From: Escherichia coli
GTDB taxonomy: Bacteria > Pseudomonadota > Gammaproteobacteria > Enterobacterales > Enterobacteriaceae
Strand: one strand, 5' to 3'
Length of the DNA: 64,000 nt
NCBI RefSeq assembly: GCF_003334385.1
Contig: NZ_QOWN01000014.1
Within the stretch, counting starts at the first letter, position 1; each line of letters begins with the position of its first letter. A model generated the notes under the pieces. That model worked only from the letters and a program-made list of their open reading frames with translations, did no database searches and had not been told where the DNA came from. The position numbers were made by a program, and so were the translations under genes. Shown piece after piece: positions 1 through 43,756 of this stretch.

Positions 1-1502
1 CATCCCTGGCAATAGCGCACGCCGCGTTTGCGCAGCCAGTTAACCTGCTCCTCAGTTTCGACGCCTTCAGCGATCGTTTTTAACCCCAGGCTGTGCGCCA
101 GCTCGATGATGTGTTCCGCAATCAAATGACTGGTTTTGTGGGTGGTCAGCGTTTCAACAAACGATTTATCGATTTTCAAAATATCGACATTCAATGATTT
201 AAGGTTATGCAAGTTAGAGTAGCCAATACCAAAATCATCAATTGCCACTTCGTAACCAGCCTGGCGGAAAGCCAGAATAATCGGCGTCATTTTTTCGACA
301 TCAAGAAATGCATGCTCAGTCACTTCAAATTTAATTTGCTGCGGACGCACCGCGTATTGCTCTGTTTTCTGATTGATTCGCGCTATCAACCGTGACGTAT
401 GAAAATCGGAGGCCGACAGGTTAATAGAAACATAGCGATCGGCATGTGTTGCCAAGTACGCGCCCAGATCACGGAAGACATTATCAATAACATAATCAGT
501 TATCTGTTCTATCATCCCCTCCTTTTCTGCCAGCGGAATAAACTCTGCCGGATTCATTATTTGCCCCTGCTCACCAAGCCAACGTAACAACGCTTCAGCG
601 CCGATACATTTTTCTGTTTTGATATCGATTATTGGCTGGTAATAAAGACAAAGTTGATGTTTTTCGAGGGCGCGTTGCAATTTACGTTTGGGAGATAAAT
701 AGTTTTGTCGAATACGTAGCCAGAGTAATAGCAGAACAAGACTCCCCAAAATACCGGCGGGCAACGCAAAAATAAGATGATTATAAAAATGGGTTATAAG
801 ACGTTGATATGAAGTCGCAACAATGGCTGCAATTGGGCGTTTTGTCGAATAAACTGTCGCATATAAATAGCCATTTCTTTGTACGGTTAAATCCTTCAAA
901 TGAATCAGCGGAGAAAACGTTGCTGCCGAGGCCTCTTTGCTTAACGAGAAAAAGGTTTTCGTCACCGTATCATACACACCCCATTGCAATGTCGGATCAT
1001 CAGACATCACTTCACTCCAGAAGAGAGGGTTGATAACTGCCACATAATTTCCCCGCTGCATATAGGTCATTTTATAGCCAGAGAAAAAAGGCGTATCGCG
1101 GTAATAATAGATAGAAACGTTAGGTTCACGCTTATAATCGGCCGGTGCAATCGTATAGCCGTTTACAGGCGCTATCAGCGATGAGCATAAAAAATGGTTA
1201 TCACGGGCATAGATCAATTCATTAATATAAAGATAGCCACGAATAATATTCAACATTCGCTTTTGATGGGCTGGAGTGCAAACTTGCCCCTGATAGCGTT
1301 CAGCTGCATCGCTCACTAAATCTGCCTGGCGAATGACCAGCTCGGATTTATCCAGTGCCAGTTGAGCAAAGGTTCGGAGCTGATTATTCACTTCTGATTT
1401 TGCCCAAAGGAAGGCAATCCATAGCGAAAGAATGATGGGAAAGAGAACTAAAAAGATAATGCCCGGCAACGCCAGTAATTGGTGTCGTGCACGATGACTC
1501 AT
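1..1502 (-). CDS. pdeC: cyclic-di-GMP phosphodiesterase PdeC/YjcC (EAL domain); 3' end cut by window edge
   Basis: Minus-strand frame open from position 1 to ATG at 1500-1502 (N-term MSHRARHQ); the last visible codons translate to [20 protein letters not shown], typical of an EAL domain; synteny next to yjcB-ssb-uvrA. Confidence 0.8.
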
Positions 1503-2248: not shown

Positions 2249-2311
2249 ATGGCTGGCAGATGCTTTAATCATCCACCTTAAAACAATATAACCTATTGTT
2301 TTAATGACAAA

Positions 2312-2848
2312 TCAGAACGGAATGTCATCATCAAAGTCCATCGGCGGCTCGTTAGACGGCGCTGCCGGAGCGGACTGCTGCGGGCGAGACTGCGCGCCGC
2401 CGCTGAACTGATTGCCACCCTGCGGCTGCTGAGGCTGACCCCAACCGCCCTGCGGCTGACCACCACCGATATTGCCACCTGCCGGAGCGCCACCACCCTG
2501 ACGACCACCCAGCATCTGCATGGTGCCGCCAACGTTCACCACGACTTCTGTGGTGTAGCGATCCTGACCGGATTGATCGGTCCATTTACGGGTACGCAGC
2601 TGACCTTCGATATAAACCTGAGAACCTTTACGCAGATATTCGCTGGCCACTTCTGCCAGTTTGCCGAACAGCACAACGCGGTGCCATTCAGTCTGTTCTT
2701 TCATCTCGCCGGTCGCTTTATCACGCCAGGATTCGGAAGTAGCCAGCGTAATGTTGGCAACTGCGCCACCATTTGGCATGTAGCGTACTTCCGGGTCCTG
2801 ACCCAGATTACCAACGAGAATAACCTTGTTTACGCCTCTGCTGGCCAT
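2312..2848 (-). CDS. ssb: single-stranded DNA-binding protein SSB (178 aa)
   Basis: Translation [28 protein letters not shown]... with Gly/Gln-rich tail and C-terminal DDDIPF; ORF-track start trimmed to the Met giving 178 aa. Confidence 0.96.
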
Positions 2849-3000
2849 GTTCGTGTCTCCTGAAAAAAATCGTTCTGAATAAGTGTAAACGCGCGATTGT
2901 ACCATTACCAATAGCGCTTTTACTATGTTGTGACCTCGGTTCCGGGAAACAAACCTGGCCAGACATTGTTACACAACACTCCGGGTAATGCATTCCAATA

Positions 3001-3016
3001 CTGTATATTCATTCAG
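3001..3016. promoter_or_regulatory. LexA (SOS) box CTGTATATTCATTCAG in ssb-uvrA divergent promoter region
   Basis: Exact CTGT-N8-ACAG-type palindrome-like motif about 85 bp upstream of the uvrA start. Confidence 0.8.
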
Positions 3017-37259: not shown

Positions 37260-39356
37260 TTAGCGGAAATTGACGCTACGGTCGCTGGTCATGTCATACA
37301 ACTGGAACTTACGCCCAAGTTGTTGACCACCGTCACGCGTCAGCGGCGTCCAGCCAATCGCCGCACGGCTGCGTGTCGGGCCAGACGAGAAGAGATCCAA
37401 CGGTACCGAGACATACACGCCTTTGGTGAAGTCCCCTTCGCCGTACTCCTCTTTCGAAACATTAGTGATCGTGGCATAGCCACCCACCACCACGCCGCTA
37501 TCAAAGCGTTTGGCGATCTCCAGCGTGCCGCCTTTATCCCCTGCCAGATACTGCCCGACGCTGGCTTTAACTAACACATCCTGAGCGAAAGATGGCGTCC
37601 AGTAGGCGGTCAGATGTCCGGTTTTCACGCTGTAGTCGGTGAATTTCATCATATCTTTTGCACTACGCCAGTCGCGCTGTTTAACGTAGTTGGCATCCAG
37701 ACCAAACGCCCAGTTGCTGTCCAGCGGGCGATACAACACTTCTGCCCCCGCACCGCCAAACATGGTTTCGAGATAACCACCGTAGACCTGACCGTAGAAG
37801 CCGTTGCCCAGATGCTGGAAGTAGTTGGCTTGCAGGTTATTCACATAGACATCGTTCTGCACATACTCGCGCACATGGGTACGCACGCGCGGTAAGTGCG
37901 AGTCCTGCGGAGGATTAGTGTAGTTAAACTTGTCGTAGTTGTTGGCAAGATTTGCAAACAGGCTGCCGGTGGTCAGCAGATGGTCCGTCAGCCACAAATC
38001 TGCCGTTCCCATCACGCCCAGCTGATACATGTAAAAGTTTTCCGGGCCACCGACCGACTGGTTCAGCACCGGATCGATATGGAAATCAAAGCGTGATTTG
38101 TCGATATACCAGCCCTGCTCGGTGGACTGCGGAACCACTGGCTCGACGCGTTTTTGCGCCAGCGTCGTTTCGTGGCCCAACGGCTCTCCGGCGAGATGAT
38201 TTTTCAGGCTGGCGACATCGGTTTCCGTCGTCGCCTGCGGCATGTTAAGGCGATTTTCCGTAATGCGGATCGTTTTGATCCCATCCGGCAGATCGTTCAT
38301 CACGATCCGATTCGCACGGATGATCCCTTCGCGCGAATCACGATATTTCACCTGCTCGCCGGTAACATACAGCGTATCGCCTTTCGCCTGGATCTGTGGA
38401 TCGGCAAGTCCGGCATTGTATTTCAACAGCGTTAACTGATTCGCCACCACCGAATGCTGCAAAATGGCATCCTGCGGCTGCGGTTGATATTGCGGGCGGG
38501 CGTTATCGTTGTAAGACGGGCGCAGATCGTTAAAGTTGGTGCGCAACGTAACGCCAAACATAAAGGTGTTGCCACGTTCATAGCTAAGGTTAACGTCGGC
38601 CCAATCGGTAACGCGATAAATCGCACCGACGTTAAACTTACTTTTTTGCTCCAGCTTCCCGGCAAAATCCTGCTGATAATTATTGCCTTCATACTCCAGT
38701 TTCAGGCGCAGCGGTTGCCAGGGCGTCTGGTATTCCACGCCGCCAAACAGTGAGGCAGGACCGTGGAACATCTGGCTACCGTCGATAGATCCCGCCTGTT
38801 TGTAGCTGTTATCGCGATAGCAATATTTATCACTGGCTGAACAGAGCGGATTTTTCACATTACCGCTGGTGCCCAAATATCCCCAGCCCAGGCCGAGCGT
38901 AAAATCGAACGGCCCCCAGGCTTTGCTGGCAACAAGATATTCCGCATCAAACAGCCCCGTACCGCCGATATCCCGCGCACCAACCGCCACTTGCGGCAGC
39001 CAGTAACTCTCTTCCCACAAACGCAGTTTGAGATCGAAGGCTTTATCTTTATACGTTTGATCGCCAGAGAACGCTTCGACGCTGCTGTACTGCCGGGTGC
39101 GCACGTCGGTGTAGCGCAGCGTTGTTTCCAGCCACGGGAAGAGTTGCACTGAAGCTGAGTAATAACGGTACTGATCGTTATCGCGATAGTTCAGGCTCAA
39201 CTCCCCTTCCCGCGCCATGCGTGCGGTGGGCGTTTGTAATAATCCTACGCCACCGAAATCCGACTGCGACGGGCCAATGGGCGCAGGATATGTTTCGCCG
39301 TAGCAAGCCATGCTAATGCCCAGCGCCAGTAAGCTAAGCAGATGTCTTTTTTTCAT
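37260..39356 (-). CDS. yjbH: outer-membrane lipoprotein-like YjbH (698 aa)
   Basis: 698-aa ORF with [20 protein letters not shown] signal, C-terminal aromatic residue; start ATG overlaps yjbG stop (TAATG). Confidence 0.9.
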
Positions 39357-40093
39357 TATTGAGGTATCCGCTGCGTCAGAGTCTGAAGAATGTCGGCGTT
39401 AAGGGCATCAGGCGTCTCACTCCAGACGGAGTCCGCGAGGCCAACATAAATAATGCTGCCGGGCATCGGCTCTACGTGACGCTTGTTCCAGTAAGCCACC
39501 GGCGCTTTTTGCGTGCGTCCGTCCGGGTAAACCACCCACGCGTAGCTGCGATCCGCACCGCTGAGCAGGCTCTGGTCAGAGAGATAGCTCGCCACGTCGC
39601 GACCTGGAGTGAATGGCTGCTTGCCAGGACGGCTGATAAGCCCGAACAACGTGACCGTGGACGGCGGTGGTCCGACCCACAGCGTGTAGTTGCCCTGCAA
39701 CGGCGGGTTACCGCGTTCGGCAACGCGGACGATATCGGGATCAAGATTGATTTTTTGCCTGCCCGTCACTTTCAACGCCTGAATTTGCTGGCGTAAGGCG
39801 TTAATCGCAGCGGCATCGTCGGCGCTGGAATCTGCGCCCTGTTCTGCCAGCCGTGTCAGCAACGCCTGCTGCTGACGCAATGCTGCCGCCGTTGCCAGCT
39901 CTTCGCTAATCACCGCACCGGGCCACCAGCTGTTTGCCAGCCGCGGTTGGCCTACCAGATCGATTAAATGCTCTGCGCCCGTTAGCGTTTTGGCCTCACT
40001 GCTGCCATTGCTGAACACCTTGACGGTTCCTGCCGCGAAGACCGATGACGCTCCCACACTCAAAAGCAACGCGACAATAGTTTGTTTAATCAT
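39356..40093 (-). CDS. yjbG: periplasmic protein YjbG (245 aa)
   Basis: [26 protein letters not shown] signal peptide; ATGA start/stop overlap with yjbF. Confidence 0.85.
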
Positions 40094-40728
40094 TGTTTTG
40101 CCGCCTTGATGAGAGTGGTTTTCACCGGAAAATAATCCGCGCCGAGATACTGTTCCGACTGGCGAATTTGCCCTTCGCTGTCGATCCAATAGCGGTTATG
40201 CCAGCGCGCCTGGTCGGTGGAGACTTCTTCGTCCAGCACGCGAACCGGGGTTTCATCGCTGCCGACTTTGACGGTATCGGTGCCATCCCATTTGAAGACT
40301 GAGCGTGCGGTGGCGTAGCGTACCTGCTGGTACTCGGTCCAGCCCATCGTGCGCGTCCAGCTTGCGCCATCAACGATTTGTGCGGGTTTAATCAGCGGGT
40401 CGGCAGCAAGGTTATTCACTTCAATCAGGTTGTCGCCGCCGAGCAGAGTCTTCACCAGACGGCCATGTTGGGTAACGAGAGTAGCCTGATCCTGAGTGAC
40501 CCATTTTTGTTGTCCGTCTTCAGCGAAGGCCAGCACCACAAATAACTGCGGCCCGCCATTAAGCTGCATGTACTGGCTGGCGTAGGGCATATTTTGAATA
40601 TCATCATCCGTCAGCTGTACGCCTGGCGGGCCGAACAGACTGTCCCACAGTGAATTGCCCAGCTCTTTAGTCGTGGCTGAACAGGCCTGTAATAGCAGGC
40701 AGATAAGAATGAGTGCAGGTCGCTTCAC
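40090..40728 (-). CDS. yjbF: lipoprotein YjbF (212 aa, GTG start)
   Basis: VKRPALILICLLLQACS lipoprotein signal peptide with lipobox LQAC; GGAG 7 nt upstream of the GTG. Confidence 0.8.
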   Translation of the reverse strand: MKRPALILICLLLQACSATTKELGNSLWDSLFGPPGVQLTDDDIQNMPYASQYMQLNGGPQLFVVLAFAEDGQQKWVTQDQATLVTQHGRLVKTLLGGDNLIEVNNLAADPLIKPAQIVDGASWTRTMGWTEYQQVRYATARSVFKWDGTDTVKVGSDETPVRVLDEEVSTDQARWHNRYWIDSEGQIRQSEQYLGADYFPVKTTLIKAAKQ

Positions 40729-40841
40729 GACTCTTCTCCAGAGGGGCAGAATAACCACACCGGAGTGTGGTTATGGTAAATCCCTTCATACTTCAAGCCA
40801 CAGATGCAATGACTCAAATTATTTTGGGGATACATACTTTA

Positions 40842-41084
40842 TTACTGGGTACTGGTGGTCGTGGTTGTGGTGGTCCCGGTATTAGAACCATCACCGCCAC
40901 CGGTTGCCGCGAGCGCGACACCCACCGCCGAGCTTACGGTGCTGACGCTGGTCGCGGAGGAACTCCCCGCCGAAACCGACGTTGCTGCCGACCCTGCCGC
41001 TTCGCCCACCTGTACAGGTGCAGCCCACGCAGAAGTCGCCGCAAGCGCAGATATGGCAAAAATGCCATACAGAACTTTTTTCAT
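40842..41084 (-). CDS. yjbE: secreted low-complexity protein YjbE (80 aa)
   Basis: [23 protein letters not shown] signal peptide followed by Gly/Ala/Ser-rich sequence and a poly-Thr run ([10 protein letters not shown]). Confidence 0.8.
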
Positions 41085-41492
41085 AACAATTTCCCTTCAT
41101 TGAATGAATGGAGATTTACCCAAAAACATTTCGGGCGGGATCGAGTATACACAACTAAAGCATGCGAATTACGGCGCGGGGAATTAGCGATGGCGTTTTA
41201 GGATAATTGGAATGAATATCAAATATAAGTTTCAACCTATATTTAAATAACAATAAAAATCATAAACTTAAAATAAAAACAAAAGCAATTAATCTGCGTA
41301 TTTTCCGAAATAAACAACGATTAAAAATCTATTTTAGGATTAACCTCACGGTATGATTTCCGTTAAATTACAGACAAGGGGATTTATCTGATAAAAAAAT
41401 GCCGACATAACGTCGGCATTGTTATTAAGGTTATTTAATCAATCGTGCTATGTATTAATTGCCGAATACGATGTACATATCGGCATCGACCT

Positions 41493-41570
41493 GTAGGCCT
41501 GATAAGACGCGACCGCGTCGCATCAGGCATCGGTTGCCGGATGCGGCGTGAACGCCTTATCCGGCCTACA
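41493..41570. repeat. REP pair downstream of pgi
   Basis: gtaggcctgataagacgcgaccgcgtcgcatcaggc and gccggatgcggcgtgaacgccttatccggcctaca. Confidence 0.8.
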
Positions 41571-43467: not shown

Positions 43468-43660
43468 GCAGGCCAGAAGAGGCGCGTTGCCCAAGTAACG
43501 GTGTTGGAGGAGCCAGTCCTGTGATAACACCTGAGGGGGTGCATCGCCGAGGTGATTGAACGGCTGGCCACGTTCATCATCGGCTACAGGGGCTGAATCC
43601 CCTGGGTTGTCACCAGAAGCGTTCGCAGTCGGGCGTTTCGCAAGTGGTGGAGCACTTCTG
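43468..43660 (+). ncRNA. lysine riboswitch (LYS element / L box) in the lysC leader
   Basis: Conserved L-box core GAGGCGC...GTTGGAGGAGCCAG...GGGGTGCATCGCCGAGG...GGCTGAATCCCCTGGG in the 5' UTR of lysC; coordinates approximate. Confidence 0.8.
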
Positions 43661-43756
43661 GGTGAAAATAGTAGCGAAGTATCGCTCTGCGCCCACCCGT
43701 CTTCCGCTCTTCCCTTGTGCCAAGGCTGAAAATGGATCCCCTGACACGAGGTAGTT

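Follow-up and report, generated by a model that had tools for sequence, protein, structure and literature searches.

The yjbEFGH operon of Escherichia coli

We analyzed the yjbEFGH operon in a 64,000-nucleotide window of an Escherichia coli genome (RefSeq assembly GCF_003334385.1, contig NZ_QOWN01000014.1), following up a preliminary description made from the sequence alone. That description had placed four co-directional genes at 37260..41084 and named them yjbE, yjbF, yjbG and yjbH. The identification was borne out: all four genes lie on the minus strand within this interval, the Pfam families PF11106, PF11102, PF20616 plus PF06251, and PF06082 follow one another in order (Table 1), and RefSeq gives all four genes these names, placing them between pgi and psiE with pgi, yjbE, yjbF and yjbG in the same order. 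The operon sits between pgi and psiE, flanked by housekeeping genes. It was found in 5,421 of 5,426 complete E. coli genomes, and many E. coli chromosomes match the yjbE region at 100% identity.

The locus is the chromosomal, envelope-stress-induced yjbEFGH operon of E. coli, which is already known. Previous work describes it as an operon under RcsA-RcsB activation that has been tied to an exopolysaccharide other than colanic acid (PMC5461412, PMC5651002), the original genetic tie to exopolysaccharide production being that of Ferrieres 2007, as cited in PMC5461412. In Salmonella, a uronic-acid exopolysaccharide disappears when wza and yjb are both mutated (PMC5461412), and yjbEFGH is a paralogue of gfcABCD, part of the group 4 capsule operon (PMC8592465). 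The literature concurs with the preliminary description that the locus has an exopolysaccharide link and that its molecular roles are unsolved (PMC5461412, PMC8592465, PMC11494523). Pfam assigns each of the four proteins only to a family named after it and NCBIfam holds no model for YjbE, YjbF, YjbG or YjbH, so the four cannot all be placed in well-characterized families.

Table 1 Features of the yjbEFGH operon and its surroundings, with positions in the window
Feature	Position	Strand	Details
yjbH	37260..39356	-	698 aa; Pfam YjbH PF06082
yjbG	39356..40093	-	245 aa; GfcC_N PF20616 (E = 1.2e-49) and GfcC_C PF06251 (E = 1e-42)
yjbF	40090..40728	-	212 aa, GTG start; Pfam YjbF PF11102 (E = 1.3e-63); RefSeq coordinates match
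yjbE	40842..41084	-	80 aa; Pfam YjbE PF11106 (E = 5.5e-33); RefSeq yjbE
Thr7 tract of YjbE	40854..40874	-	ACC ACC ACA ACC ACG ACC ACC, within the C-terminal tail
yjbE-yjbF spacer hairpin	40752..40773	-	10 bp, UAACCACAC-UCCG-GUGUGGUUA; -16.7 kcal/mol, z -3.8
5' untranslated region, two stem-loops	41092..41136	-	Predicted by folding; Helix 1 41118..41136, Helix 2 41092..41112
Promoter block	41141..41155	-	GTTGTGTATACTCGA; -10 hexamer TATACT at 41144..41149; poor -35 region
Second, half-conserved site	41199..41212	-	..TTATCCTAAAAC; shares right half TCCTAAAA with the RcsAB-type box; from the footprint; putative role
RcsAB-type box (putative operator)	41335..41348	-	TGAGGTTAATCCTA; 251-264 nt upstream of the yjbE ATG
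pgi intrinsic terminator	41393..41420	-	Hairpin and T-run, z -4.6; stem covaries between species
Repetitive extragenic palindromic (REP) element	41496..41566		Directly after pgi; Rfam naRNA4, 79.5 bits
STnc430 match	41281..41430	+	Rfam RF02053, 77.5 bits against a gathering threshold of 47
Hairpin between convergent stops	37221..37248		GC-rich; -21.1 kcal/mol, z -4.0 (-); -20.0 kcal/mol, z -2.9 (+)

Predicted architecture of the operon products

Signal peptides of all four products were judged by eye; the N-termini resemble export signals, and all four products are read as envelope proteins. In YjbF, the lipobox that the preliminary description had given as LQAC was found at 40681..40695 and is read here as LLQA/C, with an unusual Q at -2 and a Ser at +2. 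Together with a match to PDB 2IN5 (YmcC/GfcB; E = 7e-43), this assigns YjbF, from its sequence, to the outer-membrane lipoproteins with a GfcB fold. YjbG has a signal-peptide-like start (MIKQ...SVFA/AG), matches the GfcC crystal structure (PDB 3P42; E = 2e-55) and is predicted to be a periplasmic GfcC-family protein with Wza-like beta-grasp domains. The beta-grasp domains of the GfcC family are like D2 and D3 of Wza, as reported in PMC9603273 citing the GfcC structure, and class 2 outer-membrane polysaccharide export (OPX) proteins such as KpsD contain a GfcC module. Unlike Wza-type OPX proteins, YjbG is a stand-alone periplasmic protein paired with a barrel; Pfam gives only GfcC_N and GfcC_C for it, with neither a Poly_export (PF02563) domain nor a Wza_C membrane helix, setting it apart from the Wza-type class.

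The YjbH N-terminus (...GISMAC-YG) is ambiguous as to signal type by eye; its paralogue GfcD has been shown not to be acylated (PMC8592465). A PDB sequence search with YjbH returned no match and thus no solved relative. The preliminary description had raised a beta-barrel as a question, and a confident structure model answers it with two: YjbH is modeled as one chain comprising an N-terminal 12-strand FapF-like barrel, a periplasmic middle domain and a C-terminal barrel resembling polysaccharide porins, the layout that defines the last protein of such modules. YjbH/GfcD proteins have been described as the largest outer-membrane protein family predicted to have two barrels per chain, the N-terminal one being FapF-like and the C-terminal one, beyond a periplasmic domain, similar to the poly-N-acetylglucosamine (PNAG) porin (PMC8346858, PMC9603273).

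These likenesses are of fold, with low sequence identity. FapF, the outer-membrane channel of the Pseudomonas functional amyloid system, shares the barrel fold with YjbH at 14% sequence identity; unlike FapF, YjbH joins this barrel to a second one and to a periplasmic domain. No fap family or amyloid subunit is among the Pfam assignments of the operon proteins, which distinguishes the operon from a FapF-type secretion system. Identity to the PgaA, PelB, BcsC and AlgE porins is 6-10%, and YjbH has neither a tetratricopeptide repeat (TPR) domain nor a synthase partner; that the porin-like barrel is the C-terminal one is taken from the literature, as the present search did not assign the barrel.

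The same domain analysis bears on the idea that the operon is biosynthetic and itself makes the distinct exopolysaccharide, as the Pfam names ("exopolysaccharide biosynthesis/production protein") and the original genetic link (Ferrieres 2007, as cited in PMC5461412) might imply. None of the four proteins matches an enzyme family in Pfam or NCBIfam, and no glycosyltransferase, flippase or polymerase is among them. All four begin with what by eye look like export signals, their folds are barrels, beta-grasp domains and a lipoprotein, and in other species the synthesis genes are separate neighbors of the module. From the domains, a biosynthetic operon is unlikely, and overall we give this explanation very little credence.

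Conserved order, overlaps and fusions

To compare loci, we took one genome per species and obtained 80 loci, which span Enterobacterales as well as Vibrio, Shewanella, Alteromonas, Rheinheimera and Idiomarina. About 75 of the 80 species keep the F-G-H order. Both gene overlaps named in the preliminary description were located in the window: ATGA at 40090..40093 joins the yjbF stop and yjbG start (4-nt overlap), and TAATG at 39354..39358 joins the yjbG stop and yjbH start (1-nt overlap, the shared A). Among the loci from 80 other species, the F/G genes overlap by 4 or 1 nt in 52/72 and the G/H genes do so in 62/76, roughly 75-80% of the loci, so that neither overlap is a matter of chance. The ribosome-binding sites ahead of yjbG and yjbH are weak. 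Overlaps of 1-4 nt have already been read as translational coupling (PMC8592465), and ATGA and TAATG with weak ribosome-binding sites would couple translation of YjbF, YjbG and YjbH and yield the three proteins in fixed proportions.

Protein fusions point in the same direction. The YjbH family is large, with 2,664 representatives after clustering at 50% identity. Among the best 150, 52 have an N-terminal extension of >200 aa, and BLASTP or Pfam identifies at least 33 of these extensions as GfcC-like; 13 have a C-terminal PAP2 domain (lipid phosphatase superfamily). Natural fusions in the order GfcC, YjbH, PAP2 occur in representatives P0204, P0232, P0233, P0225 and others. In Idiomarina zobellii, the yjbG reading frame continues directly into yjbH. 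The conserved F-G-H order, the conserved overlaps and the GfcC-like extensions on YjbH proteins support the view that the three products work as one machine.

Gene neighborhoods tie this machine to polysaccharides. In Vibrio sinaloensis the module directly follows wza-wzb-wzc, and in V. ruber and Rheinheimera it adjoins sugar-phosphate transferase, dehydratase and glycosyltransferase genes. The Alteromonas module, like that of E. coli, is isolated among housekeeping genes. Disruption of yjb has been reported to alter colanic-acid anchoring and to activate Rcs (PMC8117528). Together, these data make it likely, in our assessment, that yjbEFGH is an outer-membrane module for the last step of surface-polysaccharide export or anchoring, and a stand-alone paralogue of gfcABCD.

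The paralogous operon has the same four families in the same order, with GfcC (3P42) as the YjbG relative and GfcB (2IN5) as the YjbF relative. Its first protein is likewise small, Thr-rich and secreted, its B/C and C/D junctions overlap by 1-4 nt like F/G and G/H (PMC8592465), and its last protein is likewise a double barrel (PMC8346858). Unlike gfcABCD, yjbEFGH is under RcsA-RcsB control and has no adjacent wza-wzb-wzc paralogues (gfcE-etp-etk), standing alone between pgi and psiE; the hydrophobic segment of YjbE is shorter than that of GfcA, and its T7 tail is fixed. The Vibrio capsule and exopolysaccharide genes wbfB, wbfC and wbfD (with orf1) correspond to F-G-H in homology and order, and a small open reading frame (ORF) for a secreted Thr-rich protein lies upstream. 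Loci of the wbf type were seen in Vibrio, Grimontia, Photobacterium and Enterovibrio and have been tied to polysaccharide transport (PMC8592465); their proteins are only 25-48% identical to the Yjb proteins, and the wbf genes are embedded in polysaccharide loci.

The PAP2 fusions raise the possibility of an LptD-like mechanism, in which YjbH would insert a lipid-anchored polysaccharide into the outer leaflet through a lateral gate of its C-terminal barrel, rather than set free polymer loose, while YjbF, with its LolA-like fold, would shuttle the lipid part. A PAP2 domain in 13 of the 150 best YjbH-family representatives hints at lipid-phosphate-linked cargo, molecular dynamics of GfcD gave a stable lateral gate able to hold lipid A (PMC11494523), the GfcB fold has been called LolA-like (PMC8592465), and yjb mutations shift colanic-acid anchoring (PMC8117528). 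This support is, however, computational throughout; the PAP2 family includes soluble acid phosphatases, the fused domain has an atypical motif, and YjbH of E. coli has no PAP2 domain. We therefore regard this mechanism as a tentative possibility, clearly less probable than the general export or anchoring role set out above.

YjbE and its threonine tract

The preliminary description of YjbE as an 80-aa Gly/Ala/Ser/Thr-rich secreted protein agrees with its composition and its signal-peptide-like N-terminus. The signal peptide (MKK...SAWA/AP, about 41022..41084, by eye) leaves a predicted mature part of 59 aa, 45 of which are T, S, A or G. Most entries from a word-indexed search for YjbE homologues were frameshifted or truncated, and the exact YjbE sequence was absent from the collection; homologues were therefore drawn from genomic loci. 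An AlphaFold model of YjbE alone, built with 25 homologues, was unconfident (predicted local distance difference test, pLDDT, 50.9; predicted template-modeling score, pTM, 0.19), suggesting that the protein has no stable fold on its own. A small secreted ORF lies directly upstream of yjbF in most of the ~75 species for which upstream DNA was available, and its products share a build: after the signal peptide come a stretch rich in Gly, Ala, Ser and Thr, a short hydrophobic Ala/Val/Gly segment and an acidic/polar motif, and the C-terminus is Thr-rich. A different pattern is seen in Alteromonas, Rheinheimera and Arsukibacterium, where the protein at the YjbE position shows a Cys pair (C..GDD..V.G.C) followed by alternating Thr-x-Thr stretches and ends in the conserved TFTYAPTxQ instead of the T7 tail of enterobacteria. 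A preprint describes the gfcA/yjbE slot as hypervariable with the signal peptide kept, always ahead of gfcBCD (10.1101/391854).

The preliminary description had also singled out a poly-Thr run encoded by reiterated ACC/ACA codons and proposed a check of its length across isolates. The run of seven Thr is there; its reading as a variable repeat did not hold up, as the codons are a mixture of ACC, ACA and ACG and the length is stable. We surveyed tract length with a 90-nt probe placed over the tract, scoring the identity band expected for an insertion or deletion, and 103 of 5,421 E. coli genomes (1.9%) fell in this band. The variant alleles sampled were 9 Thr (+ACCACA) and 12 Thr (a 15-nt duplication), every one in frame. 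Across Enterobacterales, a tail with exactly 7 Thr was kept in nearly all sampled members, among them Citrobacter, Enterobacter, Kosakonia, Pantoea, Cedecea and Mangrovibacter.

These results speak to the idea that the tract is a contingency repeat, phase- or length-variable, that diversifies the cell surface. Reiterated ACC/ACA codons and the existence of in-frame 9-Thr and 12-Thr alleles would suit such a repeat. Frequent change in repeat length between close isolates, which marks a contingency locus, is not what we find: the low share of genomes in the length-change band, the mixed codons, the confinement of the variants seen to in-frame changes and the constant length from Citrobacter to Cedecea all count against it. 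The contingency reading is already contradicted by the data and has next to no probability left; given so few variants and 7 Thr across genera, the tract is constrained rather than hypervariable.

A constrained, Thr-tailed secreted protein is compatible with a different function for the operon, namely protein secretion. Here, the FapF-like N-terminal barrel of YjbH would export unfolded YjbE, whose Thr tail would prime, carry or tether a polysaccharide in a proteoglycan-like layer, and the exopolysaccharide phenotypes would be a consequence of YjbE export. The N-terminus of YjbE reads by eye as a signal peptide, its model has no confident fold, and its composition would suit passage through a narrow barrel. 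In most species yjbF is preceded by a small secreted protein rich in Thr, the 7-Thr tail is constant across genera, and GfcA has been speculated to be O-antigen-modified and sent to GfcD (PMC8592465). Against this, there is no evidence for export or glycosylation of YjbE or GfcA, functionally unrelated 12-strand barrels (NanC, KdgM, autotransporters) reach scores close to that of FapF, and YjbE is devoid of amyloid-type repeats. E. coli K-12 has no known general O-glycosylation system, which also counts against the proposal. YjbE sequences are moreover highly variable outside Enterobacterales (10.1101/391854). On balance, we consider protein secretion as the primary function unlikely.

The yjbE control region

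The preliminary description had noted a long AT-rich region upstream of the operon. The G+C fraction is indeed 0.32 at 41085..41480 and 0.27 at 41200..41420, versus 0.55 for the operon, but this stretch is made up of two parts, the 3' elements of pgi and the control region of yjbE. The 498-bp pgi-yjbE spacer comprises the REP element after pgi, the pgi terminator, the Rcs box, an AT-rich spacer conserved in composition and not in sequence, the promoter and the 5' untranslated region (UTR). The pgi terminator marks the upstream limit of the yjbE control region.

A search for an RcsB box upstream of yjbE, as had been proposed, yielded a putative RcsAB-type box. Strict searches upstream of yjbE found no site with <=3 mismatches to the full RcsAB 14-mer and none matching the RcsB homodimer pattern TNRGAN4TCYNA; the box emerged from relaxed scoring and a phylogenetic footprint of the pgi-yjbE spacer aligned from 25 Enterobacterales. 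Its positions T1, A3, G4, T10, C11 and A14 are invariant in 25/25 species, and T1, A3, G4, T10 and C11 are the capital (conserved) positions of the RcsAB consensus TaAGaatatTCcta, the right half of which is the RcsB half-site (PMC4325325). The box has 4 mismatches to the full consensus. It fails the homodimer pattern at position 5, which is never the A that the RcsB homodimer box demands; this would fit RcsA dependence. Judged by sequence, a candidate RcsAB box upstream of the promoter places the operon in the Rcs regulon.

The second, half-conserved site lies ~68 nt upstream of the predicted transcription start. A consensus promoter scan called no minus-strand promoter for yjbE; the promoter block of the footprint is identical in 24/25 species, with a single change in one. 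Within the predicted 5' UTR, Helix 1 lies at the predicted 5' end of the mRNA and shows a modest covariation score of 0.149, a value that 11 of 500 shuffles reach, versus <=0.047 for shifted controls. Helix 2 (TCCATTCAT / ATGAAGGGA) pairs with the ribosome-binding site GAAGGGA and is identical in nearly all of the 23 species compared; covariation is uninformative for this helix because it does not vary, and Helix 2 may be a point of translational control.

The yjbE-yjbF spacer and the yjbF start

The 113-nt spacer between yjbE and yjbF contains a hairpin whose stem sequence is identical in 25/25 enterobacterial species while its flanks diverge; the loop is UCCG in E. coli and UUCG in other genera. 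A consensus terminator scan made no call at the hairpins 3' of yjbE or yjbH. The spacer hairpin is probably a partial terminator or 3' stabilizer that sets YjbE above YjbFGH. Downstream, the yjbF GTG start at 40728 is preceded eight bases upstream by GGAGAAG (40733..40739), and 25 enterobacterial species retain both this start codon and its GGAGAA ribosome-binding site. A longer yjbF ORF of 222 aa from GTG 40758 was discarded, RefSeq using GTG 40728 as the start, and a sub-threshold isrH match at 40782..40828 (E 0.41) was dismissed as chance.

The spacer is also an insertion hot spot in which the adjacent hairpin is intact every time. Nissle 1917 has a 73-bp insert at about 970..1045 of the extracted locus, several Citrobacter carry REP-like inserts, and E. 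coli EC-1639 has a short 63-nt spacer typical of other genera. The clinical urine isolate E. coli E03 (NZ_CM143907.1) has an IS1 between yjbE and yjbF (2308..3005 of the extracted locus). Published laboratory mutants with IS1 in yjbF or between yjbE and yjbF show Rcs activation and altered (anchored) colanic acid (PMC8117528), and the E03 insertion mirrors them.

Flanking elements and the opposite strand

About a third of E. coli genomes lack the REP part of the pgi-yjbE spacer or differ there, and spacer coverage of >=80% was seen in only 3,576/5,426. On the strand opposite yjbE, the match to STnc430, a candidate enterobacterial small RNA, overlaps the RcsAB-like box and has its end within the pgi terminator hairpin. 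A sigma-70-like site at 41247..41274 (+) ends 7 nt ahead of it, RefSeq has no annotation at 41281..41430, and we found no experimental description of an STnc430 RNA in the literature. This candidate small RNA match may reflect only the conservation of the spacer.

At the other end of the operon, a 92-aa ORF with a signal peptide at 36935..37213 (+), probably yjbT, converges on yjbH, with stops 46 bp apart. The hairpin between these stops is probably a two-way terminator for yjbH and the yjbT-like ORF. Upstream of pgi, on the other strand, lies a lysine riboswitch at 43469..43665 (+) (Rfam RF00168, 99.5 bits), presumably the lysC leader.

Discussion

The preliminary description correctly describes a known locus; the paralogy with gfcABCD, the reading of the overlaps as translational coupling and the double barrel, which it did not state, had been published as well. 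We propose the following working model for yjbEFGH as an export or anchoring module. RcsA-RcsB would bind the RcsAB-type box and activate the promoter with its poor -35 region, and the invariant hairpin 3' of yjbE would render YjbE more abundant than YjbFGH. By analogy with the paralogues GfcB, GfcC and GfcD, YjbF and YjbG would dock under YjbH as a periplasmic adaptor; GfcB and GfcC bind GfcD according to PMC8592465, as cited in PMC9603273. A polymer that a Wzx/Wzy-type pathway makes elsewhere would then be guided through, or laterally out of, the C-terminal YjbH barrel, and YjbE, predicted to be disordered, with a Thr-rich tail and co-conserved with yjbFGH, would serve as an accessory or co-cargo.

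Several points weigh against this model. No report identifies the polymer or demonstrates transport through YjbH or GfcD. The E. coli operon lies among housekeeping genes with no synthesis genes nearby. The role of YjbE is wholly inferred, and the signal peptides rest on judgement by eye. The RcsAB-like box is ~200 nt upstream of the only strongly conserved -10, which is far for a simple activator, and the spacer hairpin is followed by only a weak U-tract (AUUCUG), so that termination there is uncertain.

A more specific proposal is that YjbE, a disordered peptide with a strictly conserved T7 tail, is a real cargo or co-cargo, threaded through the N-terminal YjbH barrel while the polymer exits through the C-terminal barrel, the two being joined or held together at the surface. 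This would explain why one chain has two different barrels, why a small Thr-tailed secreted protein is always ahead of yjbFGH, and why the envelope is disturbed by polar insertions that separate yjbE from yjbF. We nevertheless judge it improbable as it stands. The candidate states of the exported polymer are free, lipid-linked, as the PAP2 fusions and the published simulations would suggest, or YjbE-linked.

The preliminary finding as such adds nothing to published knowledge, and the locus is an ordinary one. The analysis does provide modest leads: a conserved RcsAB-type box with exact coordinates, an invariant hairpin after yjbE, a strict 7-Thr tail and GfcC-YjbH-PAP2 fusions pointing to lipid-phosphate-linked cargo. 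The question behind the locus is real, though not new: how proteins of the YjbH/GfcD family work at the molecular level and what part the Thr-tailed YjbE plays. yjbEFGH forms part of the core Rcs envelope-stress response, and pathogenic E. coli and Shigella require its paralogue gfcABCD for their O-antigen (group 4) capsule. If solved, the mechanism of YjbH/GfcD would fill a gap in our understanding of how polysaccharides are moved or anchored at the Gram-negative bacterial outer membrane.

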